Assembly: GCA_043814095.1 (NCBI GenBank)
Contig: JBDRKI010000099.1
Coordinates: 12,342-76,341, forward strand
From: Armatimonadota bacterium
GTDB lineage: Bacteria > Vulcanimicrobiota > JACPDS01 > JBDRKI01
Direction: 5' to 3'
Length of the DNA: 64,000 nucleotides
Part shown: one piece after another, positions 3,144 through 41,107 of the stretch
Numbering within the stretch: the stretch's first letter is position 1
How the letters are laid out: each line of letters starts with the position of its first letter
Translations under genes and position numbers: made by a program
Notes under the pieces: generated by a model
Database searches by the model: none
Seen by the model: only the letters and a program-made list of their open reading frames with translations
What the model was told of the DNA's origin: nothing

Positions 3144-4538
3144 TTAATTAAGAACGACGGTATCCCTGTATTCCGGAATATTAACTTCCCATTTATATTT
3201 TTTCTCTATTTTTTCTTTTAAAGATTCTATCGCCTTTTCTTCGCCGTGCACAAGAAAAACCTTTGAAGGGTCGGATTCAAGATTAAAGAGCCAGTATAAT
3301 ATCTCTTCATAATCCGCATGGGCGGAGAAGCCGTTTATGACTTTTATCTTTGCTTCCACCGGGAAAATCCGGCCGAATATCTTTATATTCTTCTCCCCCT
3401 CTAAAATTCTTCTCCCGCGGGTTCCCTCGGCCTGATACCCGCTGAAAAGTATCGTGTTTTTAGGGTCGCTTATGCGGTGAACAAGGTGATGCAGTATCCT
3501 GCCTCCCGTGCACATCCCGTCAGCGGATATAATAATATTCCCCGCGCCTAATTTATTCAGTTTTTTGGACTCTTCGTGCTTTCTCACGTAATGAAGGTTG
3601 TGGCAGAGTATGGGGGACTGCCCTTTATCTTCAAGCTTCTGCGTTTCTATATCATGGTAGTTTTTATACTTTAAAAATATTTTGGTCGCATTAATCGCCA
3701 TGGGAGAATCAATATACACATTTGTCTTTTTGCTGATCCTTCCGGTATCCTGAAGCCTTTTAATATAATAAAGGATGGCCTGGGTCCTGCCCACAGAGAA
3801 CGCGGGTATTAACAGAACGCCTCCGGCCGAGAAGGTATCATTAATGACTTTTTCCAGTTCAAACTCGTTGCTTTCCGAAGAATGAAGCCGGTTCCCGTAA
3901 GTTGATTCCAGAACAAGATAATCCGCTTTATATACCGGTGAGGGATTTTTTAATATAGGCACCTGGTAATGGCCGAGGTCTCCCGAGAAAATAATCCTTC
4001 TTACTTTCCCGTCATATCTTAATATAATCTCAAGTATCGCCGAACCGAGGAGATGCCCGGCATCCAGAAACTTAACCTGTATATTATCGGAAATTTTGTA
4101 TACCTGATTATAATTTCTCGGCACAAAATACTTAAGGGATTCTTCAGCGTCTCTTACGGTATACAGGGGCATGGCAACTTCATATTTTGAAAACCCCTTT
4201 TTGTTGGCGTAAGCGGCGTATTCTTCCTGCAGGTGCGCCGAATCAAGAAGAAGGATCTGACACAGGTCCACAGTGGGCTTTGTCGCCCATATCTGACCCT
4301 TAAATCCTTCTTTTGTGAATTTAGGTATATATCCCGTATGATCTATATGCGCGTGCGTAAGGATGCAGTAATCTATATCTGCGGGGTTAACGGGGAGTTT
4401 TTCCCAGTTCCTGCGCCTTAATTCCCTTAATCCCTGATACAAACCGCAGTCTATCAAAATATTAACACGCCCGTCGGTTAAATAAAACTTGGATCCTGTA
4501 ACTGTTTTGGTAGCGCCTAAAAATTGTAATCTAAACAT
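3144..4538 (-). CDS. MBL-fold metallo-hydrolase with beta-CASP/RNA-specificity domain (RNase J-like ribonuclease family)
   Basis: HAHIDHTG motif (HxHxDH) near the N-terminus. The roughly 460 aa length is typical of beta-CASP RNA-metabolising MBL proteins. Confidence 0.6.
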   Translation of the reverse strand: MFRLQFLGATKTVTGSKFYLTDGRVNILIDCGLYQGLRELRRRNWEKLPVNPADIDYCILTHAHIDHTGYIPKFTKEGFKGQIWATKPTVDLCQILLLDSAHLQEEYAAYANKKGFSKYEVAMPLYTVRDAEESLKYFVPRNYNQVYKISDNIQVKFLDAGHLLGSAILEIILRYDGKVRRIIFSGDLGHYQVPILKNPSPVYKADYLVLESTYGNRLHSSESNEFELEKVINDTFSAGGVLLIPAFSVGRTQAILYYIKRLQDTGRISKKTNVYIDSPMAINATKIFLKYKNYHDIETQKLEDKGQSPILCHNLHYVRKHEESKKLNKLGAGNIIISADGMCTGGRILHHLVHRISDPKNTILFSGYQAEGTRGRRILEGEKNIKIFGRIFPVEAKIKVINGFSAHADYEEILYWLFNLESDPSKVFLVHGEEKAIESLKEKIEKKYKWEVNIPEYRDTVVLN

Positions 4539-5706
4539 TTATCTCCTGAATAACTTTCTGGGCTATTTTTTTTGCCCCGCCCGGCGGGCCCATTCTCTCA
4601 CGCCCTATTTTGGCCATATATTCGTATTTCGCGGGATTTTCTAAAATAGAAATTACTTCACCTGCAATCTTAACCGGATCTTTATCAACAACGCTTAAAG
4701 CGTCCCCTAAAAGCCCTTTTTGGCGAAGCCTGTACCACCCGAGATTGCCGTCCGGCGTCTTTTCGGAAAACGCGACAACGGGTTTTCCCAGCCCTACCGC
4801 CTGTTCGTTCGCCGTGCCGGCCTGGCCCATAATAATATGGGCCCTGGTTATTATATCCCCGAAAATACCCCGTGTAAGATACACTGTGGAATTTCCCTTT
4901 TTCAGCTCCCCGACAATGCCTTTTGTGTAATTTGTCGGAGTAAGCTCCCATCCCAGACTTATAGATGGCGCCACCATATCTCCCATATCAACCGAAGAAG
5001 CAAGCGCCGTGAAGTATTTTACATCCCAGTTAACTTTTTTGCCCAATACTTCAACCGCCTGAAGAATCATTGAAAAATCTTTATACACATCTTCGCGGCT
5101 CCCAGGAAGTATGCCCACGACAACCTGCGGGTACTGTGTTCCCATGTTGCAGTCAACAGGATTTATGCAGTCCATCATGACATTCCCCGCAAAAACCGCG
5201 TTAATGCCGTAATCCCGCAGATCCGAAGCTGTAACCTCATCCCTGGGAAAAACAGTATCGCAGTATTTTTTAAAAAGTTTTTTTTCTTTATCCGAATAAG
5301 GACAGAAATAATTTGATTTTGCCGTCCCCACAAAAATTTGTTTTCTTTTTGTAAAAAAAGAATTTAAAATAACCGGGTAAGAATCACCCACTGACAATGA
5401 AAGATCTGTTTTTGAACGTATTTTTAATATTGAATTTATCTGCCCGAATGTCAAGCCTATAAGCCCGGCTTTTACATCGTTAAAAAGCATCTTTGCGTGA
5501 TTGGAAGGCACTAGCCCCCCGCTCGGCATAAGTTTGGTAGGACCGAGTTTTTTTACATCAACATTATTATAGGCATGCCCCTTGCCCACAAGGGGTAAGG
5601 CATATACGGTAATCCCCTGATCCGCTTTTTTAATCTCTGAAATTACTTGGGCGGCTATCTCGTCTTCGCCGTAGCCGTTGCTTAATACCAAAATATTCTT
5701 ATCCAT
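4531..5706 (-). CDS. Lipid-A-disaccharide synthase-related glycosyltransferase (GT19 family paralog, TIGR03492-like)
   Basis: It shares the LpxB-family ILPGSR motif (VVGILPGSREDV) and has GT-B-like organisation. It is distinct from the canonical lpxB at 8365..9519. Confidence 0.5.
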   Translation of the reverse strand: MDKNILVLSNGYGEDEIAAQVISEIKKADQGITVYALPLVGKGHAYNNVDVKKLGPTKLMPSGGLVPSNHAKMLFNDVKAGLIGLTFGQINSILKIRSKTDLSLSVGDSYPVILNSFFTKRKQIFVGTAKSNYFCPYSDKEKKLFKKYCDTVFPRDEVTASDLRDYGINAVFAGNVMMDCINPVDCNMGTQYPQVVVGILPGSREDVYKDFSMILQAVEVLGKKVNWDVKYFTALASSVDMGDMVAPSISLGWELTPTNYTKGIVGELKKGNSTVYLTRGIFGDIITRAHIIMGQAGTANEQAVGLGKPVVAFSEKTPDGNLGWYRLRQKGLLGDALSVVDKDPVKIAGEVISILENPAKYEYMAKIGRERMGPPGGAKKIAQKVIQEINV

Positions 5707-5715
5707 AAAACACCC

Positions 5716-6480
5716 TTATAATTTTATAAGTTCGGTGGTTTCTATATCAAATTTTTTACTTCCCGGTTCTTTGCCCTTTTCTTTTTTATATACATTTAAA
5801 TTTATCTTTGTTATATACCTTCCGTGGCTGCCGGAATAAAAAATAAAGCTGTTCCCTGCCGCTACCGGCTCTTTTAGCGCTTTATGGTCATGCCCTCCTA
5901 AAAAGATAAGGCTCTCTTGAAGGCTTTCCGCGATCTTTATGCATCTTTCGTATTCAAGATGCATAAGCACGATTATAATGTCTGCTTTATCTTTTATCTC
6001 CTCGATTACATCTTTAAGAGATATTATATAATCCGTAAATTCAAATCCCGATAAGTTTTTCAAAAAAGAGCCCGGACCATACTGCCGGGGGGTTATCCCC
6101 GTTACGGCTATGTTTACCCCGTTTAAGTTCTTAATAATATACCGTTTTATAAGATTTTCATTTTTCAGGTCTTTCAGGTTGGCGGAAACAAAAGGCATTT
6201 CTGTCTGTTTTACCCTGTTTTTAAAAATACTTCTCAGGTAATGAAACTCCCTGTTTCCCACAGCCACCGCATCATAGCCCGCGTCACGCATTTTATCCAG
6301 TATATCTTCTCTTTTTTTAAAAACAGTTGAGCTTCCCCATATCGCGTCTCCGGAATCCAGAAGCAGGCTGTTCTGCCTGTTTATGGGGAGCTGTTCCAGA
6401 TAAGGAAAAACCGCCCTCTCATTATGCAGATCGGTTGTGTGATAAATTAAAATCTTTTCACCTGCCATATCCCGTTCCAT
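5716..6480 (-). CDS. Cytoplasmic calcineurin-like metallophosphoesterase with UshA/5'-nucleotidase N-domain signature motifs. Candidate UDP-2,3-diacylglucosamine pyrophosphatase, i.e. an LpxH/LpxG functional analog.
   Basis: Motifs HTTDLHN, LDSGDAIWGSS, GNREFH and GGHDH match the UshA-type metallophosphatase signature. There is no signal peptide. The gene is embedded between GT19-family genes. Confidence 0.5.
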   Translation of the reverse strand: MERDMAGEKILIYHTTDLHNERAVFPYLEQLPINRQNSLLLDSGDAIWGSSTVFKKREDILDKMRDAGYDAVAVGNREFHYLRSIFKNRVKQTEMPFVSANLKDLKNENLIKRYIIKNLNGVNIAVTGITPRQYGPGSFLKNLSGFEFTDYIISLKDVIEEIKDKADIIIVLMHLEYERCIKIAESLQESLIFLGGHDHKALKEPVAAGNSFIFYSGSHGRYITKINLNVYKKEKGKEPGSKKFDIETTELIKL

Positions 6481-8408
6481 ATCATCCCGACTATTGAGGC
6501 ATCGCGGTTAATCATTAAAGCCATTATGATCATCATAGCGGCGATAATGGCCAGCGTGTGTATCTCAGCCTTAAAAATAACCTGCCAGTTAAAACGTCCC
6601 TGCAGTTCAAAATAAGGGCGCAGCGCGTTAGGTATAATTCTCGGGACCATTTTAGCGTATATAAGGTAGGGTTCCCCGAAGGTTTCGTATAAATATACTT
6701 CTTCCAGAGGAATTATGATGCCGTAAACTACCATATATCCCATAAGAAAGAGCATAAGCACGATAACTCTTTCTACGGACAGCATACCGCCTATGGCCAT
6801 AAAATAAAAGCCAAGGGCTGTTACGCAGTTGCCCAGATACAGGGGATTTTTAATATAGGCGTAGGGGCCCGCCGTAACAAGCTGCGGGGCCATAAGCTCG
6901 CTTTCCCTCGTGGTTGAGCCCGCGTACCCGACACCCCAGATACGCAGAAATTCGCCCCCGAAAACAAAGATAAGTCCGAACAAAAACGAATACAGCGTGG
7001 GACGCGCGATAAAAAGCACAAAAACAGCCAGAGGCGCGAGAATCCAACCGCGCCATCCGAAAACAAACTCCCTGAAAGGCGTGCGTATTTTATGCGCATT
7101 GGCAAATAAATTTACGCTTGAATCAAGCGAACTTAATATAAGTTCGGCTATCTTCGTTGAAGCATCATGCTTGCCTTTAGTCACCTCAATTAATTCGTGG
7201 CTCATTTTTTCCCTTACATCATCATTCTTTAAAAGCTCCGCGGCCACATTCGTAACTTCTTCAGCTTTCTGTTCCACAATAACTTCAGGCACAATTTCTT
7301 TATCGGCAATCTGGTTTGGAAGCGCCGTAAATTTAATTCTCTTTAGTATCCAGTAAAGAAGCTTCTTCCTGAAAAAGGAGCCCATCGGAAGCGAACCCAG
7401 AAAGCCGGTAAGCCCGCCGCGCGGTATTTTCGCGCGCCATGTTGATGAAACAATCATGGGTTTTCCGAGCGCGGCCACTTCAGCGGTATTGGTGCCAGGT
7501 ATGGTAAGCACAAGGTCGGATAAATTAATCACATCATACTGCATGCCCTGGAGCACCCTTACCTTAAGGCCTTTCTCCGTTTTTATAAACAACGAGCCGT
7601 TATTGGTTATAAGCTCGGCTTTTGTGCCCTCCAGCCCGCTGCCGGAAGGAGTAAGGCATTTTTCAAGATCTTTTAAAGATAAAAACGGTGATACGCCGAG
7701 TAAAAACTGTATGTTGCTGAAACGGTCTTTCAGCTCTTCCGCCACTTTTAAATAGTAAGGAAGGCTTTCTTTCACATGATAGAACCTGCTGCCCGGAAGT
7801 ATGCCGACAGTATGAGAAGTCTCTTCTATGCCCCACTGTTTGCTCACAGCCAGCTTATCAAGGGTGGGCTTTGCCTGTTCAACCATTAGATTCCCGACAA
7901 CCACAATCCTGTCTTTTTTAAACCCCAAATCTGCCATCTCCTGGGCTATTGCCTCATCCTGCACGCCGAGGTAATCAAAATATTTATTCCATTTTGACGC
8001 TTTTACCGAATATGCGACCGAAGGATACCTGAGCCTTCTGGAGACTATAAGAGCGTGCCAGAAATCCCCGCCCAGAAAAACCACGCTCCCGAAAGCGGCG
8101 GGAGAATATTTTTTAAGCCTGAAACCGAAAAGAAACTGTACAAACTCTTTAGGATTTATAACAACATCAACACCGTCAATGGCTTTGGCAATTTCTTCTT
8201 CTTTACCGCTCGCGTAAGGACACGGTACAAGCATAACAATTATGCGTATCTCCGGACGACTTAATTTTAACTTTGCAATTGTTATTCTCACCCATGAAGA
8301 AAGCTCTCCCGGACTGTTTGTTATTATAACTATATCTTTTTTCTTATCATCAACTTTAAGCATATTACTCCTCAACTTTATTAATAATATCGCGGATGAG
8401 CCCGGCAA
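6447..8408 (-). CDS. Two-domain fusion protein. N-terminal GT19 (LpxB-like) glycosyltransferase domain; C-terminal polytopic ICMT/PEMT-family methyltransferase domain (LmtA-like).
   Basis: The N-terminal ~430 aa carry ILPGSR (HTVGILPGSRFYHV) and a GT19-like layout. The C-terminal ~220 aa have several TM helices and the ICMT motif region (NPLYLG...EE..L...FGEPY..Y...VPRIIP). Confidence 0.5.
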   Translation of the reverse strand: MPGSSAILLIKLRSNMLKVDDKKKDIVIITNSPGELSSWVRITIAKLKLSRPEIRIIVMLVPCPYASGKEEEIAKAIDGVDVVINPKEFVQFLFGFRLKKYSPAAFGSVVFLGGDFWHALIVSRRLRYPSVAYSVKASKWNKYFDYLGVQDEAIAQEMADLGFKKDRIVVVGNLMVEQAKPTLDKLAVSKQWGIEETSHTVGILPGSRFYHVKESLPYYLKVAEELKDRFSNIQFLLGVSPFLSLKDLEKCLTPSGSGLEGTKAELITNNGSLFIKTEKGLKVRVLQGMQYDVINLSDLVLTIPGTNTAEVAALGKPMIVSSTWRAKIPRGGLTGFLGSLPMGSFFRKKLLYWILKRIKFTALPNQIADKEIVPEVIVEQKAEEVTNVAAELLKNDDVREKMSHELIEVTKGKHDASTKIAELILSSLDSSVNLFANAHKIRTPFREFVFGWRGWILAPLAVFVLFIARPTLYSFLFGLIFVFGGEFLRIWGVGYAGSTTRESELMAPQLVTAGPYAYIKNPLYLGNCVTALGFYFMAIGGMLSVERVIVLMLFLMGYMVVYGIIIPLEEVYLYETFGEPYLIYAKMVPRIIPNALRPYFELQGRFNWQVIFKAEIHTLAIIAAMMIIMALMINRDASIVGMIWNGIWQVKRF

Positions 8409-9519
8409 CTTTATTAATTACGCCGCCGGATTCAAAATTTTCTTTAATTCTTCGTAAATCGCAGAGCATATCCCTTCTGGCGGGACTTTCTTTAATAAGC
8501 TCGCGCGCAAGCACGCTTATCCTGCGCGGACTTATGTCTTTTTGAATAAATTCAGGAACGACTTCTTTTCCCAGAATAATATTAGGCAGAGAAATATGCT
8601 TAAGGTACGGGAATAATATCTTTGCCGCCGTATAATCAAACCAGTTTAACCTGTATAAGACTATCATGGGGGTTAAAAAATACGCGGCCTCAAGAGTCGC
8701 TGTCCCGCTTGAAGTTATAATAAGATCGGATGCCTGCATTACATCATAAGCGGACCGGGTAACCCGTACAGGAAAGCCTGTCTTTGCCCTTGTTAAGTAA
8801 TCCCTTATAATCTTCTCTATATGGGGCGATGAAGCCGGTATCATAAAGAAGGTCTCCGGGTCTTTCTCGTGAATCAGCATGGAAGTCTCTATCATACTGC
8901 CCAGAAGGAGCCTGACTTCATGAGCCCTGCTGCCGGGAAGAAGCCCTATAACCTTATCTTCTTTTATCCTGTACTCTTTTTTTATGCTGTGTTTATCCCT
9001 GCGCGCATCCTCTATTGCGTCAACTATTGGGTGGCCGAAATAATAAACTTTTTTTCCTGCTTTTTCATACATATTTTTAGTATGTTCAAAAACAGGTACG
9101 ACATAATCAAAGAACCGGGCGTAACGGCGGGTTTTATCAAGATTTTCTTTCCTCCATGCGGAAGGCGGAAAATAATACATCATCTTGATGTTGTGTTTTT
9201 TAACATACTCCGCTATGCGCACATTTATTGCGGGCGAATCTATTAAAATCAAAAGATCGGGCTTGAATTTCACTATATCTTTTTTAAGCTTATCCACCTT
9301 AAACCACAGGTAGGGAACTTTCTTAACGGCTTCCCATATGCCTATAACTCCCCATGAAGAAGTATCCGTAAAATGTTCAAGCTCCTCGGATTTTAAACTG
9401 TGTCCGCCGGCTCCAAGAAACACAATATTATTATCCATCTGCTTCAGTTTCTTTACCAGTAATGAAGAATGCAGATCTCCAGAGGATTCAAACGAAGTTA
9501 TGGCTATTTTTTTGTTCAT
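8365..9519 (-). CDS. lpxB: Lipid-A-disaccharide synthase
   Basis: 384 aa. The N-terminus SFESSGDLHSSLL parallels the LpxB motif AGEVSGDxLGA, and the LLPGSRxxEV motif is present. It sits immediately downstream of lpxA. Confidence 0.8.
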   Translation of the reverse strand: MNKKIAITSFESSGDLHSSLLVKKLKQMDNNIVFLGAGGHSLKSEELEHFTDTSSWGVIGIWEAVKKVPYLWFKVDKLKKDIVKFKPDLLILIDSPAINVRIAEYVKKHNIKMMYYFPPSAWRKENLDKTRRYARFFDYVVPVFEHTKNMYEKAGKKVYYFGHPIVDAIEDARRDKHSIKKEYRIKEDKVIGLLPGSRAHEVRLLLGSMIETSMLIHEKDPETFFMIPASSPHIEKIIRDYLTRAKTGFPVRVTRSAYDVMQASDLIITSSGTATLEAAYFLTPMIVLYRLNWFDYTAAKILFPYLKHISLPNIILGKEVVPEFIQKDISPRRISVLARELIKESPARRDMLCDLRRIKENFESGGVINKVAGLIRDIINKVEE

Positions 9520-9586: not shown

Positions 9587-10369
9587 TTATTTTCCGACTA
9601 TTCCCAGCCTTGACGGATTATTTAAAAAATCTACCAAATGGCGGACTTCTTTGTCTGAATTAAGATTGCTGTTAATTTCATCAACAGCCTGACCTATATT
9701 GAGTTTGGAATCCATAATATATTTGTACGCTTTTTTAAGCTCTTTTCTTCCTTTTTCGTCAATGCCTTTACGCGCCAATCCCCTGTAGTTTATACCGTAA
9801 AGTTTGATAGGCTGGCCGTCAGCGATTGAAAAAGGAGGCACGTCTTTTACTACCTTGGAAAAACCGCCTACCATTGCCATCTTGCCTATTTTGGCAAACT
9901 GGTGGATACCCGTCATACCGCCTATAACGGCATGATCTTCCACTTCAACATGACCGGAAAGCCCTGTTGAATTGGCGATTACTATGCCGCTGCCGAGCAC
10001 GCAGTTGTGTGCCACGTGCACAAAAGCCATAAGCATATTATCGTTTCCGATAACTGTCTTTCCGCCTTCGTCCGCGGCCCTGTGAACGGTTATGAATTCG
10101 CGCAGTATATTATTGTCGCCTATCTCAACATAGCTTTCAAAATCCTTGTATTTTAAATCCTGGGGGGGAGCGCCTATAACGGATGAGACCCCTATCTTGT
10201 TGTTACTGCCTATTTTAGTCCATCCCTCTATAACACAGTGAGAAGCTATTTTGGTATTATCGCCTATTATGACATTTTTCCCGATTATGGAATAAGGGCC
10301 TACCTCTACTCCCTTGCCTAATTTGGCCCCTTGATCAATGATAGCCGTAGGGTGTATCACTTGCTTCAC
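9587..10369 (-). CDS. lpxA: Acyl-ACP:UDP-N-acetylglucosamine O-acyltransferase
   Basis: 260 aa with left-handed beta-helix hexapeptide repeats. The N-terminus IHPTAIIDQGAKLGKGVEVGPYSIIG is typical of LpxA. Confidence 0.85.
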   Translation of the reverse strand: MKQVIHPTAIIDQGAKLGKGVEVGPYSIIGKNVIIGDNTKIASHCVIEGWTKIGSNNKIGVSSVIGAPPQDLKYKDFESYVEIGDNNILREFITVHRAADEGGKTVIGNDNMLMAFVHVAHNCVLGSGIVIANSTGLSGHVEVEDHAVIGGMTGIHQFAKIGKMAMVGGFSKVVKDVPPFSIADGQPIKLYGINYRGLARKGIDEKGRKELKKAYKYIMDSKLNIGQAVDEINSNLNSDKEVRHLVDFLNNPSRLGIVGK

Positions 10370-10370
10370 C

Positions 10371-11354
10371 TCAATTTTTTGTCATGGCCAGATATTCTTC
10401 AGCAAGCTCTCTGTTGCGTTTTACCGTTTTCATGGAGCTTACAATCTGCATGGCCAGCTCCAGCGCGCGTTTGCCGTCTTCCCCCGAAACCATGGGGGTT
10501 TTATGCTGTGACACGCATTCTATGAAATGAGCCAGCTCCAGGCGCAGAGGTTCGTCTTTCTCAACATATATATGCTCAAATGTATTGGGTTTGCCGTTCA
10601 TGGGCGGTTTCATTAAAGTTACCGCCTGGTTTATAAAATCAAGAAGCAGGGTCCTGCCGTTCTCAATAACCTTCATCTGCCTTAGCTTCTCACCGCTTAC
10701 CCTGGAGGATAAAAGCTGGGCGACACAGCCGTTTTTAAATGTGATCTTCACTATCGCCAGATCCTCAAAATCAGAGTATACGGATATCCCTGTTGCCTGA
10801 ATCTCCTTAATATCCGATTTAACAATATTAAGAAGTATATCAAGATCATGAACCATTAAATCCCAGACAATGCCCACGTCTAAATTCCTGTTTGTGGGGA
10901 AAGACATTCTCTGGGCTTCAATAAATAAAGGTTCGTTTATAAGTTTTTTAAACATCAGCATCGCGGGATTAAACCTCTCCAGGTGGCCTACCTGCAGAAT
11001 CATGTCTTTGCCGTTTGCCATATCTATTAATTCTTTGGCCTGACTCAAATCGGTTGTTATAGGTTTTTCAATCATTACATGTATATTTCTGCTTAAAAAA
11101 TCTTTGGCAATCTGATGGTGAAGATTTGTCGGAACTGCAATATTGACGGCGTCTACTTTTGCAAAAAGATCCTTATAATCAACGTAATAATCGGTCTGCA
11201 GCTTTCTCGCGACTCCTTCGCCGAGATCTTTCTGAATATCAACAAGGCCGGTCAGCTCAACATTTTCCATTTCCGAATATATTCTGGCGTGGTGCCTGCC
11301 CATGTTGCCTACACCTATAACACCAACTCTGATTTTATTACTCAAAGCGTTCAC
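10371..11354 (-). CDS. Gfo/Idh/MocA family NAD(P)-dependent oxidoreductase, GnnA-like candidate (UDP-GlcNAc 3-dehydrogenase)
   Basis: Rossmann N-terminus IRVGVIGVGNMGRHHARIY. The gene sits inside the lpx operon between lpxC-fabZ and lpxA. Confidence 0.55.
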   Translation of the reverse strand: MNALSNKIRVGVIGVGNMGRHHARIYSEMENVELTGLVDIQKDLGEGVARKLQTDYYVDYKDLFAKVDAVNIAVPTNLHHQIAKDFLSRNIHVMIEKPITTDLSQAKELIDMANGKDMILQVGHLERFNPAMLMFKKLINEPLFIEAQRMSFPTNRNLDVGIVWDLMVHDLDILLNIVKSDIKEIQATGISVYSDFEDLAIVKITFKNGCVAQLLSSRVSGEKLRQMKVIENGRTLLLDFINQAVTLMKPPMNGKPNTFEHIYVEKDEPLRLELAHFIECVSQHKTPMVSGEDGKRALELAMQIVSSMKTVKRNRELAEEYLAMTKN

Positions 11355-11446: not shown

Positions 11447-12712
11447 TTATTTTTCCACCACGAGGGCAAACATAAGTTCGCCTTCAGCCACCACCTTGTC
11501 TTCCACTTTAGCGATGACTTTAACCTTGCCCATCTGGTTGCTTCTTAAGCTGATAACATCGGCCTCAATTAAAAGCTGGTCTCCCGGAACAACGGCTTTT
11601 CTGAATTTTACCTTGTCTATCCCGGCAAAGAAAGGGGTTATTTTTTTGTCTCTGCGCCCGTTTAAAAGCATAATGCCGCCCACCTGGGCCATTGCCTCAA
11701 TAATTAAAACACCCGGCATAATCGGATTCCCGGGGAAATGACCGTTAAAGAACGGCTCGTTTATCGTTACGTTTTTTATCCCGACAGACCTTTTATCGTT
11801 CTCAAGCTCAAGAATCCTGTCCACCAGCAAAAACGGATAACGGTGCGGTAAAATACCGAATATCTCTTTAATATTAATGTCAGCCACTGTACCCTCCTTA
11901 ACCACAGGCAGTCTTTTGATAAAATCAATATCCAGACTATGGCTGGATTTATAAGCGTAAATATGCGCCTTAAGCGGTTTTCCCAAAACGGCCAGATCTC
12001 CGATAAGGTCCAGTCCTTTATGGCGGACAATCTCGTCATCAAAACGGAGTTTGGTCATTATACTATCCTGTTTTATAACCACTGCGTTATCAAGAGAGCC
12101 GCCAAGAGCCAGATTTCTTTCCTTTAAGCTCTCTACTTCCTCCCAGAAACCAAAAGTTCTCGCGGGAGCAACTTCGGAAAGAAAATCATTTTTTTCCTTA
12201 ATAAAATCAAAACTCTGGGCACCTACCATGGGATGGTTAAAATTTACCAGAGTTGTAATTTTCAGTTCATCCGCGGGATGAGCGGTTATGAAAGAGTCGC
12301 CCTTTTTAAACGAGAACGGCTCTTTTATTATAAGATAGGATTTATCGGCGTTCTGTTCAAGCAGATGAGATTTTATCTCGGCGGCAAAAGGAAGAGCACT
12401 CCCGTCTAAAGCCGGTATTTCTTCGCCGCTTACCTCTATAAGCAGGTTATCAACCCCGTAAGCGTAAAGCGCCGCCAGAAGATGTTCCACCGTCCTGACA
12501 TTACAGTTTTTTGTTCCTACGGATACGGAACGAACTGTAGACAATACACCAGCCGGACACAATTCAATCTCGGGCGTTCCTGGAAGATCTACACGTTTAA
12601 ATTTAATGCCGTAATTTTCTTCCCTGGGAATCAATCTGACTTTTACCTCTGTACCCGAGTGAAGGCCTATGCCGGAAAATTCCAGTTCTTGTTTTAATGT
12701 TTTCTGCTTCAT
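11447..12712 (-). CDS. lpxC-fabZ: Bifunctional UDP-3-O-acyl-GlcNAc deacetylase / 3-hydroxyacyl-ACP dehydratase (LpxC-FabZ fusion)
   Basis: The N-terminal part is LpxC-like ([21 protein letters not shown]...). The C-terminal ~140 aa are FabZ-like ([22 protein letters not shown]). Confidence 0.85.
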
Positions 12713-12749: not shown

Positions 12750-13784
12750 TTATTTTGCCTTATTTTCAAGTTCTTCTATTCTTTTATTAAAACTTTCAAT
12801 GGTTTTAGAGAGGGATGTCATATATGACTGCATTTTTAATTCTTCCCTGTGGCTCTTTGCGGGGAAACCGCTTACCATGCTTTTGGGTTTTATCTCTTTT
12901 GTAACACCGGCGCGTCCGAGCACCATTGTGTCATGCCCTATCTTCACGTGATCGGATACCCCCACCTGGGCCGCCAGTATAACCCGGTCTCCGACTTTGG
13001 AAGATCCTGCTACACCGGTCATGGCAACGATTATACAATCTTCACCTATCTCAACATTATGTGCTATATGAACAAGGTTGTCTATCTTAGTGCCCCTGCC
13101 TATCCTGGTAGCGCCTGTTGTGGCTCTGTCCACGCAGGTATTTGAACCGATCTCCGCCTCATCTCCTATATGCACGGTGCCGAGCTGGGGTATCTTAAAA
13201 TTCTTAGCGCCTTCCTTAACATAGCCGAAGCCTTCGGAACCTATTACCGCGCCGCTGTATATGATCACACTGCGCCCCATAAAAACCCTGTCAAATATGA
13301 CAGCATTGGGATAGATTACCGTTCCTGCGCCTATTTCAGCGCCTTCACCTATATAAACACCGGCATGAATCTGAACATTATCACCGATAACGGCGCCCTT
13401 ATTAATCACCGCGTTCGGACCCACGGCAACATCTTTGCCGAGCCGCGCTTCAGGGTCTATAACCGCCTTCTCGTGTATGCCGTTAAGAGGCGTTTTTACT
13501 TCAAACAAACCCAAAACTTTCGCAAACGCAAGCTTTGGATCGCCGGCAACAAGAAGGGTCTTGCCCCTAATGTCAGTATATTTAATTTTATTGCTCGCGA
13601 TAATAACGCCTGCCGTGGAGTTTAAGGCCTTCTCAAAATTTCTCGTATCCGCCGCCCAGATGATGGAACTCGGACCGGAAATTTCCACATCATCGCCTTT
13701 TAATTCGGCTTTTATTTCCCGCGCTATTTCGCTTGCTTTAAAAGACATTTCAATACCTTTACTGCAGTTTATTTTTAATTTCAT
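12750..13784 (-). CDS. lpxD: UDP-3-O-acylglucosamine N-acyltransferase
   Basis: 344 aa with beta-helix hexapeptide repeats. It occupies the lpxD position between skp and fabZ. Confidence 0.8.
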   Translation of the reverse strand: MKLKINCSKGIEMSFKASEIAREIKAELKGDDVEISGPSSIIWAADTRNFEKALNSTAGVIIASNKIKYTDIRGKTLLVAGDPKLAFAKVLGLFEVKTPLNGIHEKAVIDPEARLGKDVAVGPNAVINKGAVIGDNVQIHAGVYIGEGAEIGAGTVIYPNAVIFDRVFMGRSVIIYSGAVIGSEGFGYVKEGAKNFKIPQLGTVHIGDEAEIGSNTCVDRATTGATRIGRGTKIDNLVHIAHNVEIGEDCIIVAMTGVAGSSKVGDRVILAAQVGVSDHVKIGHDTMVLGRAGVTKEIKPKSMVSGFPAKSHREELKMQSYMTSLSKTIESFNKRIEELENKAK

Positions 13785-14175: not shown

Positions 14176-15489
14176 TTATTCCATTTCCATAACCTGTTTG
14201 GTCAGATCAACAGCATCTATATCCAGAATATATTCTCCTACAACATAAGATATATTCTCCGGTATTGCGGCTTTTCCGACCTTCTGGCTTATACTGCTTA
14301 TAATCTCGTCGTAAAGACGGTCCCTCTGCTCTTCAAGTATTTCAATCTGTTTTTCCAGTTCTTTCCTTCTTTCGTCAGAAAGCTTGTCCAGAGATTCTTT
14401 TTTATCCATGGCCTTTTCTACAAGCTCTTTTTCCTGCTTTTCAAGCTTTTTCTGCAGTTCAATCCTTTTGTCCTCAAACTGTTTCTCATATTTAGCGGAA
14501 AGCTCTTCAACCTGTTTCTGGTACGCTACTCTTTTTTCTTCCAGTTTCTGCTTGGCATATTTATACTGGGGTGATGAGAGTTCTTTCTTGCTGGAATATT
14601 TCTCATAAAGCCCTTTTCCTTTTATCTGGGCCATAACGTCTTTTTCAAGATCCTCGTTATACCGGGCAACTTCCCGCTCTATTTCATTAACTCTTTTCAG
14701 CTTATATTCTTCAAACTTTTTATCAAGCTGGAGCTGTTTAATTTCCGCAAGGTGCGATTCTCTCGCGTTCAGAGCTTTAAGCTGATTGATCACTTCTTCC
14801 CTTTCCTCGGGCGTTACAGCGTTGTCGCGTTTAAAAACCAGGTTGATTTTTTCATTCTGATTTTTAAGCTGTATTTCCCTCTCGTAAGCGGAAAGTTCCT
14901 GGCGCTGTTTCTCTTTAATACCCCTTAGCTCCTCAGTTAATTTTTTCTGCAGTTCAAGGCGCTTTGCCGCAACCTGTTTTTCCTTAAACGCAATTAAGTC
15001 CTTGACAAACTGGTCCAGGCTCTGCTGGAGCGTCTGGGATGTAACTTTTTTGGGCGGGGCCAGAAGTTCTTCGGGGCTCGGTCCCTGCGATTGAAGTATT
15101 TTTATCTGCTCAACTATCTGGTTTTTTTCTGCTTCCATCTGCGAACCAAGCTCGGCCTGTTCTTTCTGCAGTCTCTTCTGTATCTGGAGCAGCTCTTCAC
15201 CGAGCTGCTGGGCCGCCTGCTGCTGCTTTTTCTCCATCATAACGGCCACGCTCTTTAAGGGGTCAAGCTCCATATCCAGCTGTTCCTGCAGGCCCATAAG
15301 CTGTTCGTTAAGCTTTACAAGCTTATCATAATCAGGATGGGCTTCTATAAGCTTATCCAGTTCAACCACGCCGAATTTACCGTAAGGCATATCCGCGCTG
15401 TTAACGGGGGTTTTAAATATGAAGAAACTGGCGGCAAATACAATGCCGACAAGCACCGTTACTGTTATCGCATATTTTAAAAATCTCAT
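14176..15489 (-). CDS. OmpH/Skp family protein with a roughly 300 aa Lys/Glu/Gln-rich coiled-coil insertion
   Basis: N-terminal TM/signal. The sequence starts and ends like OmpH (GVVELDKLIEAHPDY ... ISYVVGEYILDIDAVDLTKQVM) and has a long heptad-like charged repeat region between. Confidence 0.55.
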   Translation of the reverse strand: MRFLKYAITVTVLVGIVFAASFFIFKTPVNSADMPYGKFGVVELDKLIEAHPDYDKLVKLNEQLMGLQEQLDMELDPLKSVAVMMEKKQQQAAQQLGEELLQIQKRLQKEQAELGSQMEAEKNQIVEQIKILQSQGPSPEELLAPPKKVTSQTLQQSLDQFVKDLIAFKEKQVAAKRLELQKKLTEELRGIKEKQRQELSAYEREIQLKNQNEKINLVFKRDNAVTPEEREEVINQLKALNARESHLAEIKQLQLDKKFEEYKLKRVNEIEREVARYNEDLEKDVMAQIKGKGLYEKYSSKKELSSPQYKYAKQKLEEKRVAYQKQVEELSAKYEKQFEDKRIELQKKLEKQEKELVEKAMDKKESLDKLSDERRKELEKQIEILEEQRDRLYDEIISSISQKVGKAAIPENISYVVGEYILDIDAVDLTKQVMEME

Positions 15490-15518
15490 ATTAACACGAT
15501 CCCTCTATAATCAAACTT

Positions 15519-16343
15519 TTATTTCTCGGTCTGGGCCCTGAATTCCTTAACTACTTCTTCGGTCACATTGACGCCGCCGAACATTATGCTGTTCTTGCTT
15601 AAAATAAGGCTTAATCCCTTATTTTTTGATATCTGCTCAACGACTTTGATAACGGTATCGTTTACTGGAGAATATATTTCCGCTCTTTTCTTGTAAAAAT
15701 CCATCTCATACTGCCTTGTAAGTTTTTCCCTTTCCTTGCTTCCAAGCTTCTTGATCTGCGCTTCAATCTGGCCCTGCAGGCCTTTATAGTAAGCGGCAAG
15801 CTTCTCGTCCGCGTCACGGAACGCTTTTAACCTTCTTATAACTTCCTGATCAAAATATCCCACGGGTGAATTAAATTTCGCAGGAAGAGAGCTTAATTTT
15901 AATTCTTTCTCGCTGCCGACCATTTTAATAACATCATCTGTTATGTCTTTAATCCCGTAAACGGATATCTTTTTGTCAACGACCACGCTCATACCGCTCT
16001 TGCCTGCCACGACTTCTATCGCGGCCTCAACTCTTTCTTTCAGCGGATTTAAAAGAACTGCTCTTTTCTGCTCAAGCTGCTGCTGGTATGTTATAAGGAG
16101 CTCGCTCTGCTTGGCTTTTGACAGGTCTTTTGCTTTTTTGTTGTACAGATCGTAAACTTCTTTAGCGAAAGTTTCATACTGTTTTAACGCGCCGGCAAAT
16201 TTTTCAGACGCGAATATTTTATCCTGATCAACACAGCCCACCTGTGCCGCCGGATTTGATAAGCTTCCTATAAGAAACTTCACACCGAAAATAATACCTA
16301 CAATTACCAGAACTATTACTGCTGCAGTAATAAACTTTTTCAT
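15519..16343 (-). CDS. skp: Tandem-domain OmpH/Skp periplasmic chaperone
   Basis: Signal/TM anchor followed by two successive OmpH-like units. Each ends in (V/I)DxT(D/E)EV(I/V)K-type motifs (DITDDVIKMV; VNVTEEVVKEF). The gene is immediately downstream of bamA. Confidence 0.6.
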   Translation of the reverse strand: MKKFITAAVIVLVIVGIIFGVKFLIGSLSNPAAQVGCVDQDKIFASEKFAGALKQYETFAKEVYDLYNKKAKDLSKAKQSELLITYQQQLEQKRAVLLNPLKERVEAAIEVVAGKSGMSVVVDKKISVYGIKDITDDVIKMVGSEKELKLSSLPAKFNSPVGYFDQEVIRRLKAFRDADEKLAAYYKGLQGQIEAQIKKLGSKEREKLTRQYEMDFYKKRAEIYSPVNDTVIKVVEQISKNKGLSLILSKNSIMFGGVNVTEEVVKEFRAQTEK

Positions 16344-16365: not shown

Positions 16366-18495
16366 CTAAAACGACTGTCCCATGCCGATTGAGAACCTGC
16401 CTTTACCGCCGCCCCTTACGGCATAGTCTATCCTTATAACGCCTACTGCCAGGCCGATCTTCTGGAAGACAAGCCTTAAACCAACGCCTACGTCCTTGCG
16501 CAGGGTTGAATCCTGTCCCGGCGACCATGCGTTGCCCGCATCGGCAAAAACCGCGGCCTTTAAAAGATCTATCTTGCCCACTGGGAACCTGTACTCGGCG
16601 TTCGCAAGAAGCATCCTTGAGCCGAATATTGAGTTATCCTCGTAAGCTCTTAAAGTATCAACACCGCCTATGTAAAAATACTCCATTGCCGGGGGTATTC
16701 CCGATATCGCCCCTCCCCACAACCTTAAAGCTATGCTTCTTTCTTTTTTAAGTGGGAAATATCTTCTTATTTCGGCCTGATACTTGCTGAAGTTATAAGA
16801 ACCCTTTAGTGAATTTCCGGCCACCATGCCGGATGTATTTATATAATAACCCTTATAGGGATTAAATACGTCATCTCTTGTGTCATATATGCCGGTAAGG
16901 GATACCGCGTTTAAAGAACCGCTGCCCATGGCTATCGGCGTATATTCCGACGCCGCGCTTTTGTTCATAGCTATGGTTTCCCTTCTTAATCCTATAATGC
17001 CGCGAAGGTCAAGACCCAGCCATCTTCCGTAAGAGACTGTGCCGCCTCCCCTGTGATCGTCATAATAGGAGTACAGGACAGGTTCGGTATCGTATATGGG
17101 CTGTCTCAGTTCCCTGTAAGTACTGTTGAAAACCGAGAAACCTATCTGATCGGCGCGCTTGTTAATCGCCGGCGAATAATAAGATACTGCCCATGAATCT
17201 ATATTGAAGCCCCTCTGCCAGCTTGTTGATATACTCTGGCCGTTTCCTCCCAGATTCCTCATATTGGCGGTAACCCCGCCCGTTAAGCCGCTTCTGGATG
17301 TCGCGCTAACGCCGCCGCCGCCGTAGCCCACGCCGAAGGTAAAGAAGTTATACTTCTTTGGCTCTTTAACTTTCCATATGACTATATATTTGTCGGGAGC
17401 CGAACCCTGCTCTGTTTCTATCTCTATATTGTCAAAAAGCTGCAGGTCCTGGAGATGCCTGTGATCTCTCATTATGCTTTCACTGCGCAGGAACATTCCC
17501 TGCTTCATCTTTAATATGCGCATAATGAAATATGTTTTGGTTTTTACATTGCCGGTTACTTCCACTTTTTCAACGGTAACTTCCGCAACATCAATATTTA
17601 CAATCCCCTTGTCATAATCTATCTGCGGCTGCTGTATGTTGGCAAAATAGTCTTTCTCTTTGTAAAAATCTAAAAGATTCGTAAGATCTTTTGATAGAAC
17701 TTTTTTATTAAAAAGCTCCCCTGGCTTTAAATTTATTATCTTTTTCAGCTTTTCTTCGGAATAGGTTTTATTGCCGGTTATGTTTACTTCCGTTATCATC
17801 ATCGCTTCTCTTATGTCTATCTTTATCTCGCCTTCAGGGGTCCATATTATATCCTTAATATGGTTCGGGAGCCAGTAGCCGAGATCTTCATTATAATAAT
17901 TTCTTATCACCGCAAGGTCGCCGCTTAAAACTTTATTGTTAAGAATCTTACCGATCTTGGTTTCCATAAGAGCCAGAAGTTTATCAGTAGTAACTATTTT
18001 ATTACCGGTTATTTCTATCTCTTTAACTATCGGATTTTCCAGAACCGTGAATACCACCTTTACGCCGTCGTCAAAAGGAACTTCCGAGTAATTTACGTCG
18101 GAGAAGTATCCCATATCCAGGATGGCGCGCCTGTCCCTTATAAGTTTGGGCTCTAGAACAGGATCGCCCGTTTTGGTTATTAAAACATTTTTTATTTCAT
18201 CTGCGGGAATTGCATTATTTCCCTCTATAACAACCGCGGTTACAAGTTTAGGTTTCTCGCTTACCACATCTTCCGGAAGAGGAAGCCCCTCATAAGGGAT
18301 CTCTTCTACGGTTTCTTCTTTATCGGTATCTTCCATGGATGCGGGAAGCTCTTCTTCCGTATGCACCGGCTGGGGAACGGCAGGCTTTTTGTCCTTGTTA
18401 TCCTCGGCCAAAACAGCGCTTGTTATTAACGCGATAACAGCCAGAAGAAGTATCAATATAATTATTTTTGATCTGCCGTATAATAATTTATTCAT
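16366..18495 (-). CDS. bamA: Outer membrane protein assembly factor BamA
   Basis: 709 aa with signal peptide, POTRA-like repeats and a C-terminal beta-barrel ending GQSF. It sits in the conserved position upstream of skp-lpxD. Confidence 0.85.
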   Translation of the reverse strand: MNKLLYGRSKIIILILLLAVIALITSAVLAEDNKDKKPAVPQPVHTEEELPASMEDTDKEETVEEIPYEGLPLPEDVVSEKPKLVTAVVIEGNNAIPADEIKNVLITKTGDPVLEPKLIRDRRAILDMGYFSDVNYSEVPFDDGVKVVFTVLENPIVKEIEITGNKIVTTDKLLALMETKIGKILNNKVLSGDLAVIRNYYNEDLGYWLPNHIKDIIWTPEGEIKIDIREAMMITEVNITGNKTYSEEKLKKIINLKPGELFNKKVLSKDLTNLLDFYKEKDYFANIQQPQIDYDKGIVNIDVAEVTVEKVEVTGNVKTKTYFIMRILKMKQGMFLRSESIMRDHRHLQDLQLFDNIEIETEQGSAPDKYIVIWKVKEPKKYNFFTFGVGYGGGGVSATSRSGLTGGVTANMRNLGGNGQSISTSWQRGFNIDSWAVSYYSPAINKRADQIGFSVFNSTYRELRQPIYDTEPVLYSYYDDHRGGGTVSYGRWLGLDLRGIIGLRRETIAMNKSAASEYTPIAMGSGSLNAVSLTGIYDTRDDVFNPYKGYYINTSGMVAGNSLKGSYNFSKYQAEIRRYFPLKKERSIALRLWGGAISGIPPAMEYFYIGGVDTLRAYEDNSIFGSRMLLANAEYRFPVGKIDLLKAAVFADAGNAWSPGQDSTLRKDVGVGLRLVFQKIGLAVGVIRIDYAVRGGGKGRFSIGMGQSF

Positions 18496-24538: not shown

Positions 24539-25438
24539 CTAATGCTTTATAAAAGAACTCAATAAAATAAAAAGAAACAACAGCATAATACTCCAAAACT
24601 GCCATAGGCCGAATAAGCTTTTTATATTGCCCCAAAATCCTTTAAACCTAACCGTGTCTACCTCGGCATTGGGGGTTTCTTTTATTAACAATTTAAACAA
24701 TAATATTATCAATATAATTGATAGTATTATTAAAACGGGGGGAAGATGGTATTTAGTATATGCGCTAAATTTATAGGTGTAAAAATAAGCAAATAATATA
24801 GCTGTGGCATTAAAAGTTCCGTGGGCTAACATGCTCGAAAAAATTGAGCCTGTCCTATAGACCAAATAACCCAAGACCAAACTCACAAAAATAGAAGATA
24901 TAATATGTGAGATGCAGTTCATGTGTAGGGCACCAAAAAGAAACGAAGCGATAACAATCGCTTGAATAAAGCCAAATTTTTTAAAAGCATTCAAAAGATA
25001 GCCTCTAAAATAAAATTCTTCGTATAATGGAGCGATAATTACCATTAAAAAGATAAATAAATAAGAATCTAAATTATTATTTGATTTGGGATAGGGATCA
25101 GCAATAATAACGACTGAAGCGCAGAAAGATTTAATTAAATAATATAAGTAAGTGCCTGTGAAAAAACTAATAACACCGATTAGAATTGATAAAATTACTA
25201 TTCGGTAATTTATTTTTTTAATACTAAAAGCATTTATAATATTAAGCTTTTGCTTTTTTGCCGCTATGAGAAGTATTAAAATAAGAAATATATTGTTAAT
25301 AACATCACTAAAATATTTAAACCCAAACAAATTTTTGTTAATACTGTATAGTACTCCCCCTAAAATAAGCATAATCAAAAATAAATTTAATGCGTTTCTT
25401 ACCGAAGAATGCCTAATCTCTTGAATATCATTTTGCAT
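24539..25438 (-). CDS. CPBP family intramembrane glutamic endopeptidase (CAAX protease/Abi family)
   Basis: Polytopic membrane protein with the EExxxR motif (EEFYFRGYL) and a FxxxH motif (LFGALH). The gene is very AT-rich compared with its flanks. Confidence 0.7.
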   Translation of the reverse strand: MQNDIQEIRHSSVRNALNLFLIMLILGGVLYSINKNLFGFKYFSDVINNIFLILILLIAAKKQKLNIINAFSIKKINYRIVILSILIGVISFFTGTYLYYLIKSFCASVVIIADPYPKSNNNLDSYLFIFLMVIIAPLYEEFYFRGYLLNAFKKFGFIQAIVIASFLFGALHMNCISHIISSIFVSLVLGYLVYRTGSIFSSMLAHGTFNATAILFAYFYTYKFSAYTKYHLPPVLIILSIILIILLFKLLIKETPNAEVDTVRFKGFWGNIKSLFGLWQFWSIMLLFLFILLSSFIKH

Positions 25439-35015: not shown

Positions 35016-35297
35016 TTAACTTTTCAGGAACGGCTTTATTAATTTAAATGCCGCATACGCGCCTATAAGTATTCCCATGATAACAAAAAGAGGAAAATAA
35101 AGATCGTTCCCTGTTTTGTCCGAGATATAGTTGCCTGCCAGTATTCCGAATACTATGCAAATGACCATCGTAAAACCCAGCGACATACCCAGGTTAAGAC
35201 TGCTGGCAAATGCTTTGTTGTACTTTTTGTCTTCCGGCCCTCTTGCCTCTTCAATTTTTTCTTTCAGGAGTTCCGGCGTTATTTTTTCTTTGTTCAT
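35016..35297 (-). CDS. AtpZ/AtpI family small membrane protein (putative F0F1-ATPase-associated subunit)
   Basis: 93 aa with two TM helices. It is the first gene of the atp operon. Confidence 0.45.
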   Translation of the reverse strand: MNKEKITPELLKEKIEEARGPEDKKYNKAFASSLNLGMSLGFTMVICIVFGILAGNYISDKTGNDLYFPLFVIMGILIGAYAAFKLIKPFLKS

Positions 35298-36436: not shown

Positions 36437-36445
36437 ATCATCCTC

Positions 36446-37983: not shown

Positions 37984-38002
37984 AATAACCTCTCAAATAT
38001 CC

Positions 38003-39427: not shown

Positions 39428-39440
39428 CCCTTCATTATGT

Positions 39441-40187: not shown

Positions 40188-40210
40188 AACCCTTTACCTT
40201 AATTTATTAT

Positions 40211-40981: not shown

Positions 40982-41107
40982 AAGTTTTTAATTTCTTTAT
41001 AATAAAAATTATTCCTTTTTTATTAAACTTAACAATCATTATAAATTTTTTACACCGATAATCTAAGAAAAGTTACCGCCAAAAAGAACACTTGTTCGGT
41101 TTTCAAA

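Follow-up and report, generated by a model that had tools for sequence, protein, structure and literature searches.

A glycosyltransferase-like paralogue of LpxB fused to an ICMT-fold methyltransferase in a lipid A operon: a candidate lipid A-modifying enzyme

The fusion gene and its two domains

We studied a 64,000-nucleotide stretch of a metagenome-assembled genome (MAG) deposited as an Armatimonadota bacterium (GCA_043814095.1, contig JBDRKI010000099.1, positions 12,342 to 76,341; hereafter "the window"), in which one gene of a lipid A operon encodes an N-terminal domain resembling LpxB, the lipid A disaccharide synthase of CAZy family GT19, followed by a C-terminal membrane methyltransferase domain of the ICMT/PEMT fold. 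An initial annotation had proposed this architecture, and a single open reading frame (ORF) with both Pfam domains was indeed found. The ORF is uninterrupted from 6447 to 8408 on the minus strand, which had not been stated previously, and encodes 653 amino acids (aa) if started at the TTG at 8408; the likelier start is a downstream ATG, giving a fusion protein of 638 aa. This ATG is preceded by a GAGGAG sequence and lies one base past the stop codon of the upstream lpxB gene, and the fusion gene appears to be translationally coupled to lpxB. The 638-aa product is identical to NCBI MFH1454154.1 ("hypothetical protein ABIH00_09300"), from a MAG labelled Armatimonadota. The features of the gene are as follows, the N-terminal domain being designated PARA.

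6447..8363, minus strand: coding sequence of the fusion (PARA::methyltransferase), 638 aa plus stop; the maximal ORF reaches the TTG at 8408
8361..8373, minus strand: putative coupling signal, with GAGGAG at 8373-8368, the lpxB TAA stop at 8367-8365 and the fusion ATG at 8363-8361
7113..8363, minus strand: PARA, an N-terminal GT-B domain and GT19/LpxB-like paralogue, aa 1-417
7053..7112, minus strand: inter-domain linker, aa 418-437, of variable length and sequence among fusions
6450..7052, minus strand: C-terminal ICMT/PEMT-fold membrane methyltransferase domain, aa 438-638

Full-length fusion homologues of 580-637 aa, with 34-78 % identity and from independent assemblies, were recovered from a set of 5.8 billion proteins. 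Thirteen of these align end to end with conserved flanks around a variable linker (approximately residues 415-430) and no frame break. Exhaustive searching of 1.84 billion cluster representatives with a profile further yielded P0006, P0071 and P0241, which represent fusions, as well as the fragment P0011. The PARA::methyltransferase architecture is therefore rare but recurrent; in the databases its members are labelled "hypothetical" or, wrongly, "lipid-A-disaccharide synthase". An AlphaFold2 model of the whole chain, built from a 147-sequence alignment, reached a predicted local distance difference test score (pLDDT) of 93.6 and a predicted template modelling score (pTM) of 0.88. Most relatives carry two separate genes that adjoin to within a few bases, so a single indel could fuse them, and we considered whether the fusion in this MAG is an artefact of sequencing or assembly that merged two neighbouring genes. 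Such an artefact is extremely improbable, because the 13 homologues come from independent projects and keep the junction in one frame with no stop in the linker, because fusions occur in several clades and in the additional representatives of the exhaustive search, and because the whole chain is modelled confidently. We regard the fusion as almost certainly real.

PARA is recognised by the Pfam LpxB model (PF02684, 54.8 bits, cutoff 22.6) and falls below the cutoffs of both the LpxB equivalog TIGR00215 (53.6 bits, cutoff 190.25) and TIGR03492, the "lipid-A-disaccharide synthase-related protein" (54.4 bits, cutoff 219.2). LpxB is by far the closest sequence relative: a PARA family profile matches the LpxB structure 5w8s at E = 2e-17, and a fold search with the whole-chain model returned only GT-B matches, including monogalactosyldiacylglycerol (MGDG) synthase and processive diacylglycerol glucosyltransferase. 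Conservation was measured over 77 sequences only 38-55 % identical, and the motifs retained are T15-N-S-P-G-E20, L45-V-P-C-P49, G98-G-D100-x-W-H-A104, P190-G-S-R193, I288-P-G-T-N-T-A-E295, P314-x-G-G317, P349-N350 and P359-E360. The residues to which the LpxB structure paper (PMC5785501) gives roles, namely those of the uridine diphosphate (UDP) site, E15/S17 and the predicted base D98, were mapped onto PARA by alignment and family conservation. The UDP site is kept (P190-G-S-R193 corresponding to LpxB P198-R201, T291/E295 to T277/E281 and P349-N350 to N316), all of these residues being invariant or at least 90 % conserved. LpxB E15-T-S17, within A-G-E-T-S-G-D, is replaced by an invariant N16-S-P18 (E15 to N16, S17 to P18), and the conserved S-P-x-V-W-A-W-R segment of LpxB is deleted, while PARA has its own invariant L-V-P-C-P-Y-A-S-G and G-G-D-x-W-H-A motifs and a K-I-P-R-G-G-L insertion. 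Since the PARA-specific motifs (TNSPGE, LVPCPYASG) are as constrained as those common with LpxB, the specificity of PARA is probably distinct from, and not redundant with, that of LpxB. One would expect this pattern if PARA were an active glycosyltransferase that uses UDP-sugars but differs from LpxB in its acceptor, and possibly in its donor sugar; a decayed pseudo-enzyme would look different. PARA appears to form a previously undescribed GT19-like paralogue family.

The C-terminal domain passes the Pfam PEMT model marginally (PF04191, 26.0 bits, cutoff 25) and fails the ICMT model (PF04140, 22.4 bits, cutoff 24), so that of the two Pfam families to which the initial annotation had pointed only the former is matched above threshold. 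Its wider assignment to ICMT/PEMT-type enzymes holds: a profile of 57 members of the methyltransferase family matches the Tribolium ICMT (E = 5e-11) and the Methanosarcina enzyme Ma-ICMT (1.4e-8), and the domain modelled alone (pLDDT 90, pTM 0.85) finds Ma-ICMT (4a2n) as its top Foldseek match (probability 1.00, TM-scores 0.52/0.57), followed by the Tribolium ICMT and steroid 5-alpha-reductases. The motifs named in the initial annotation are all present, in the numbering of the 638-aa protein, as NPLYLG (506-511), EE (554-555), FGEPY (562-566) and VPRIIP (573-578). Conserved residues of the domain are R438-G439, G470-E-x-x-R474, G479-Y-x-G-x-x-T-R486, G499-P-Y501, N506-P-L-Y509, E554-E555, F562-G563, Y566, Y569, V573, P578 and E600. 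Among them is the cofactor motif (K/R)-N-P-L-Y...E-E...F-G-x-x-Y-x-x-Y (here K505-N-P-L-Y509...E554-E555), of which N, P, Y and EE do not vary across the family. R474, also invariant, is aligned to Arg173 of ICMT, a ligand of the substrate carboxylate, which argues for an anionic oxygen acceptor. With ICMT/Ste14 (PF04140; Ma-ICMT 4A2N; Tribolium ICMT 5V7P) the domain has in common a five-helix core, the cytoplasmic-interface site for S-adenosylmethionine (SAM), the (R/K)xPxY...EE...FG..Y motif and the Arg173 equivalent. It differs in its lipid A context, ICMT acting on prenylated proteins, and in an invariant G-Y-x-G-x-x-T-R loop that ICMT does not have.

Membrane topology prediction, which had been suggested for this protein, places five transmembrane helices in the C-terminal domain (approximately 439-453, 457-478, 510-526, 531-553 and 596-619), and by hydropathy no segment of transmembrane grade lies within residues 1-417. 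If the GT-B domain and the two loops bearing SAM motifs are assigned to the cytoplasm, lysine and arginine residues number 10 inside versus 4 outside, and the stand-alone methyltransferases open with a basic stretch before the first helix, in agreement with the same orientation. Both active sites should hence be turned towards the leaflet on the cytoplasmic side, the place of lipid A precursor synthesis.

The lipid A operon and its relatives

The fusion gene sits in an outer-membrane and lipid A cluster in which all genes are on the minus strand. Its other members are listed below in the order of the operon, the fusion gene lying between lpxB and the metallophosphoesterase gene.

18633-23960, minus strand: tamB
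16366-18495, minus strand: bamA
14176-16343, minus strand: two skp/ompH-like genes
12750-13784, minus strand: lpxD
11447-12712, minus strand: lpxC-fabZ fusion
10371-11354, minus strand: UDP-N-acetylglucosamine (UDP-GlcNAc) 3-dehydrogenase-like gene (GnnA-like)
9587-10369, minus strand: lpxA
8365..9519, minus strand: canonical lpxB (lipid A disaccharide synthase), directly upstream of the fusion; Pfam LpxB 251.9 bits, TIGR00215 210.8 bits, above the cutoff of 190.25
5716..6480, minus strand: UshA/5'-nucleotidase-like metallophosphoesterase, 254 aa, overlapping the end of the fusion gene by about 20-34 nucleotides
4531..5706, minus strand: TIGR03492 "lipid-A-disaccharide synthase-related protein", 298.8 bits, above the cutoff of 219.2, and supported by synteny

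The operon therefore contains three genes of GT19 type: lpxB, the fusion and the TIGR03492 gene. Assignment of the N-terminal domain of the fusion to TIGR03492 was considered and rejected, the true TIGR03492 gene lying two genes downstream; its product is also a GT19-like paralogue but of a distinct family, scoring 299 bits on its own model against 54 for PARA, and without the L-P-N motif and the PARA motifs. The initial annotation had read the GT19-type domain of the fusion as a lipid A disaccharide synthase and suggested a coupling of disaccharide formation or handling to methylation. This is not borne out for the synthase, as the canonical LpxB is encoded directly upstream and PARA stays far below the equivalog cutoff without E15/S17 and the WAWR segment; literal coupling of disaccharide formation to methylation is unlikely, because the fused domain is probably not the disaccharide synthase.

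Directly after the methyltransferase, more than 30 loci conserve the metallophosphoesterase gene. In the window this stand-alone protein resembles the N-terminal domain of UshA/5'-nucleotidase, and no similarity of it to LpxH or LpxG was found. Since UshA is a UDP-sugar hydrolase and such similarity is lacking, the protein is a candidate UDP-2,3-diacylglucosamine hydrolase, which would make it a functional analogue of LpxH, LpxI or LpxG. In many related loci the module ends with the TIGR03492 gene, whose product is a candidate second glycosyltransferase. Several loci of Sericytochromatia or Margulisiibacteriota type have this gene about 2 kb from PARA. Elsewhere in the window, a scan of the ORFs found no lpxK, waaA, gnnB or msbA.

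LpxC and FabZ form one 421-aa protein in the window and apparently also in locus L010, and are separate in most related loci (L001, L002, L004 and others). The position of the GnnA-like gene between lpxC-fabZ and lpxA suggests a lipid A of the 2,3-diamino-2,3-dideoxyglucose (GlcN3N, amide-linked) type, as in Leptospira; a partner aminotransferase (DegT/GnnB-like) adjoins the GnnA-like gene in L001 (5913-7992).

One genome per GTDB species was scanned with the N-domain alignment, and PARA was found in at least 114 GTDB species genomes. According to the NCBI titles, several of which are obviously mislabelled, the carriers are mainly Eremiobacterota/Xenobia/Vulcanimicrobiota, UBP9, Ca. Bruticola, Sericytochromatia, Margulisiibacteriota and Aerophobetes. 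The NCBI labels of MAGs with a very similar operon (L005-L084) are inconsistent and include Armatimonadota, Bacillota, Chloroflexota, Burkholderiales, Chitinophagales and Syntrophothermus, which casts doubt on the label given to the source of the window; the locus groups with genomes of Xenobia/Eremiobacterota type. For 84 loci plus the window, stop-to-stop ORFs were scored with hidden Markov models (HMMs) for PARA and for the methyltransferase, and with the lpx proteins of the window, which gave four arrangements.

PARA alone: 39/85 loci
PARA followed by a separate methyltransferase: 29/85 loci
LpxB::PARA fusion with the methyltransferase just downstream: 11/85 loci
PARA::methyltransferase fusion: 6/85 loci

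When PARA and the methyltransferase are separate genes they abut within -13 to +12 nucleotides (26/29 loci), and in Eremiobacterota-like lineages the order lpxB, PARA, methyltransferase is conserved across three fusion states. The full order lpxC-fabZ-gnnA-lpxA-lpxB-PARA-methyltransferase-phosphoesterase-TIGR03492 is met again in dozens of genomes; L088 has the last five, from lpxB to TIGR03492, as a unit detached from lpxA, lpxC and lpxD, and in L003 the PARA-methyltransferase pair stands alone. In all lpx-linked loci a canonical LpxB accompanies PARA. In L037 the methyltransferase gene (3381-3956) lies between lpxA and lpxB and not after PARA, still within the lpx cluster.

On a neighbour-joining tree of the PARA domain, which is approximate, the PARA::methyltransferase fusions are polyphyletic and occur in at least three places beside unfused relatives, so this fusion appears to have arisen at least three times. 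The LpxB::PARA fusions, by comparison, form one clade: L004 (10001-12448), L026, L028-L032, L034, L036, L045 and L050. These proteins of approximately 815-850 aa come from Ca. Bruticola, UBP9 and gut or rumen MAGs, are annotated as "lipid-A-disaccharide synthase" and always have a separate methyltransferase gene after them. E. coli LpxB being a C-terminally swapped homodimer (PMC5785501), the LpxB::PARA fusion may mimic a heterodimer. The loci with PARA alone make up an essentially separate clade (Sericytochromatia, Margulisiibacteriota, Aerophobetes), which suggests that the methyltransferase is a later partner. A further fusion, GT2::PARA (739 aa; L085 8001-10220, L086 5641-7860), adjoins genes for a GT9 (heptosyltransferase-family) protein, two ArnT-like PMT_2 proteins, a small GT2 and an MsbA-like ABC transporter, a setting that supports a genuine glycosyltransferase role for PARA in lipopolysaccharide (LPS) assembly.

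A candidate lipid A-modifying enzyme

Taken together, these observations make a lipid A-related role of the fusion probable, and we give an even chance to the more precise proposal of a bifunctional enzyme, located in the inner membrane with cytoplasmic active sites, that would modify lipid A or a precursor by glycosylation through PARA and by O-methylation. PARA would be a UDP-sugar-dependent GT-B glycosyltransferase derived from LpxB, with a remodelled acceptor site, and would most likely glycosylate what LpxB produces (tetra-acyl disaccharide 1-phosphate, or something close to it) rather than make the disaccharide. The C-terminal domain would be a SAM-dependent O-methyltransferase of ICMT/LmtA type, tethering the glycosyltransferase to the membrane and methylating the same lipid on an anionic oxygen, for which the 1-phosphate, the target of LmtA in Leptospira, is the likeliest site. 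Which lipid serves as substrate, which sugar is donated, which group is methylated and in what order the reactions run are all given here as we infer them. Because fusions recur at both junctions of the triad, LpxB, PARA and the methyltransferase are likely to act together: the fusion would follow directly on the canonical LpxB, and the three would work consecutively, probably in physical contact, on the same membrane lipid. Together with the UshA-like phosphoesterase and the TIGR03492 glycosyltransferase they would constitute a five-gene late module. The three alternative fusion states are unusually strong genomic evidence that the members of the triad act together.

The choice of the 1-phosphate as the most likely methyl acceptor follows from the affinity of the domain to LmtA, a sugar carboxylate being the main alternative, and taken by itself we rate 1-phosphate methylation somewhat short of an even chance. 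The domain was placed relative to LmtA, ICMT, PEMT and MddA by HMM scores. The LmtA model (TIGR04571) is the best curated family for 57/57 scanned sequences (56 stand-alone methyltransferases plus the C-terminal domain of the window), with a best E-value of 4.7e-24 against 1.8e-11 for the protein ICMT, and it also outscores MddA, with all 57 scoring far below the LmtA cutoff; the domain of the window itself obtains 47.4-48.7 bits (E = 2e-12) on the LmtA model and 33-35 bits on the protein ICMT model NF040696, whose cutoff is 160. LmtA, which the initial annotation named as the only characterised lipid A enzyme of this fold, is thus upheld as the nearest curated family. LmtA of Leptospira interrogans, reportedly identified as a lipid A Kdo2 1-phosphate O-methyltransferase by Boon Hinckley et al. 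in 2005, is a polytopic SAM-dependent methyltransferase of the same ICMT/Ste14 type. It is a stand-alone protein of about 250 aa whose link to lipid A is functional, while that of the C-terminal domain is genomic, and its spirochaetal lineage is unrelated to that of the fusion.

Several observations weigh against the proposal. With 47-49 bits against a cutoff of 325 the C-terminal domain is not an LmtA orthologue and does not belong to LmtA proper, and since NCBIfam has few ICMT-type models, to call LmtA the nearest is a weak statement. The His of the RHPxY motif is Asn throughout the methyltransferase family, and the second carboxylate-binding residue of ICMT, Arg246, aligns with the hydrophobic I550, so that the acceptor site is not simply ICMT-like. 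On the glycosyltransferase side, D98, predicted to act as LpxB's catalytic base, aligns one column off PARA G99/D100 (D100 is conserved in 71/77 sequences, and H103 in 77/77). PARA also occurs with no methyltransferase or lpx gene nearby in Sericytochromatia, Margulisiibacteriota and Aerophobetes; as these lineages carry it without the methyltransferase, its primary role would not need methylation, and the link to lipid A is there one of homology only.

The reading of the initial annotation would make the GT19-like domain a disaccharide synthase after all, that is, an additional LpxB isozyme (acting, for instance, on GlcN3N-type substrates) or the second protomer of an LpxB heterodimer, coupled to an LmtA-type methylation of the 1-phosphate. 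LpxB is indeed the closest solved and curated relative of the domain and the donor-site residues are conserved; the GnnA-like gene of the operon and the DegT/GnnB-like gene of L001 make GlcN3N substrates plausible, Leptospira possesses both lpxB1 and lpxB2, and the swapped E. coli homodimer and the LpxB::PARA fusions would fit a heterodimer-like pairing. We nevertheless find this reading unlikely, given the constant presence of a canonical LpxB beside PARA in lpx-linked loci, the wide gap to the equivalog cutoff, the replacement of E15/S17 and loss of the WAWR segment together with an insertion of its own, and the equal constraint on distinctive and shared motifs, which points to a distinct specificity. 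A similarly doubtful proposal keeps the glycosyltransferase and changes the methyl acceptor, the methyltransferase esterifying a carboxylate, for example on a uronic or ulosonic acid just attached to lipid A by the fused domain; it would then act chemically like a true ICMT with a glycolipid as substrate. Relatives of known structure methylate carboxyl groups, R474 corresponds to their carboxylate ligand, and a fusion of the two activities would be most economical if the methyltransferase acted on the group that the glycosyltransferase adds; against it, the phosphate methylase LmtA outscores the protein ICMT in every one of the scanned sequences, the conserved module contains no UDP-sugar dehydrogenase or uronate epimerase gene, and ICMT R246 is not conserved.

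If PARA had no catalytic role, it could bind lipid or UDP or serve as a scaffold, docking the methyltransferase onto LpxB or handing over the LpxB product, with methylation as the only chemistry. The replacement of the E-x-S motif important for LpxB activity, and the change of PARA's fusion partner between clades (LpxB in one, the methyltransferase in others), would suit such an adaptor, but PGSR and T...E, whose only known role is in binding the UDP leaving group and ribose, are nearly invariant, PARA is widespread without any methyltransferase, and it is fused to a GT2 glycosyltransferase in a cluster of LPS-core type, all of which render this distinctly improbable. It is very improbable that the module acts on another lipid (a glycosyl-diacylglycerol, a polyprenyl-phosphate-linked sugar or a hopanoid) and lies near lpx only through the clustering of envelope genes. 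No lpx gene was found within 6 kb in nine of the loci with separate PARA and methyltransferase genes and in most of those with PARA only, and the GT-B fold matches include MGDG synthase and processive diacylglycerol glucosyltransferase; yet PARA is fused to a bona fide LpxB in 11 loci, in more than 30 it lies in a tight operon, flanked by lpxB and the other genes of the module, and the best relatives are LpxB for PARA and LmtA for the methyltransferase.

The preferred reading, a bifunctional enzyme modifying lipid A, places the fusion between two known systems: in broad terms it may be described as LpxB plus LmtA, and it appears to be a member of neither because it fails both equivalog cutoffs and lacks several defining residues. 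LpxB (GT19; PF02684; E. coli 5W8S/5W8X) has in common with PARA the GT-B fold, P-G-S-R, the G-T...E ligands and the L-P-N motif, and like the fusion it is encoded in a lipid A operon. It is peripheral on the cytoplasmic face of the inner membrane, to which it binds by a hydrophobic patch, whereas PARA is here covalently tethered to an integral membrane domain; PARA is moreover a paralogue that coexists with the canonical LpxB.

A broader and rather speculative proposal, which we hold unlikely, is that the five-gene unit is an alternative late lipid A pathway of Eremiobacterota-like diderms. In this scheme the phosphoesterase would replace LpxH, LpxI or LpxG, the two LpxB-derived glycosyltransferases would extend the disaccharide in place of or besides the LpxK/WaaA chemistry, and the LmtA-like enzyme would cap the 1-phosphate with a methyl group, with LpxB, PARA and the methyltransferase in one membrane complex and PARA pairing with LpxB like the protomers of the swapped homodimer. 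If true, a phylum whose lipid A has not been analysed so far would possess a methylated and extra-glycosylated form, and Leptospira would cease to be the only known source of methyl-phosphate lipid A.

In the literature searched, no description was found of a GT19-like/ICMT-type fusion or of a GT19 paralogue, in line with the initial annotation, which knew of no described arrangement of this kind, nor was one found of the lipid A of Eremiobacterota. To our knowledge GT19 is regarded as a CAZy family with a single activity, that of LpxB; PARA and TIGR03492 would be two further GT19-derived activities and candidates for post-LpxB steps in lineages whose Raetz pathway may be incomplete. According to a 2023 study, there is no description of lipid A with a methylated phosphate from bacteria other than Leptospira, in which the modification has been connected with a change in TLR4 recognition (PMC10248169). 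An LmtA-like enzyme in the lipid A operon of an unrelated and widespread environmental and gut-associated lineage would mean that this chemistry is no spirochaete oddity, and the fusion is, on genomic grounds, a candidate for an undescribed two-step lipid A decoration outside that genus. Eremiobacterota are diderms with LPS genes and include one cultured species, Vulcanimicrobium alpinus, in which the question could be tested directly, as it could by expression in E. coli and mass spectrometry of lipid A.

Other features of the window and of related loci

A gene for an Rce1-like CAAX/CPBP protease (24539-25438, minus strand) was considered as a partner in a protein-ICMT role and was rejected, as it lies 16 kb away and no related locus has it. 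Between lpxD (or skp) and lpxC, some related loci encode a conserved protein of about 600 aa without a Pfam match (L001 2840-4633, L087 1430-3226, L004 4790-6616), which is absent there in the window. The fusion profile also recovered P0357, a 604-aa protein with two tandem PEMT/ICMT-type domains. Further along the window (35294-41000, minus strand) lie genes for a WecB-like UDP-GlcNAc 2-epimerase and a WecA/MraY-type GT4-family transferase, then a GGDEF protein and an MlaD-MlaF-MlaE lipid transport system.

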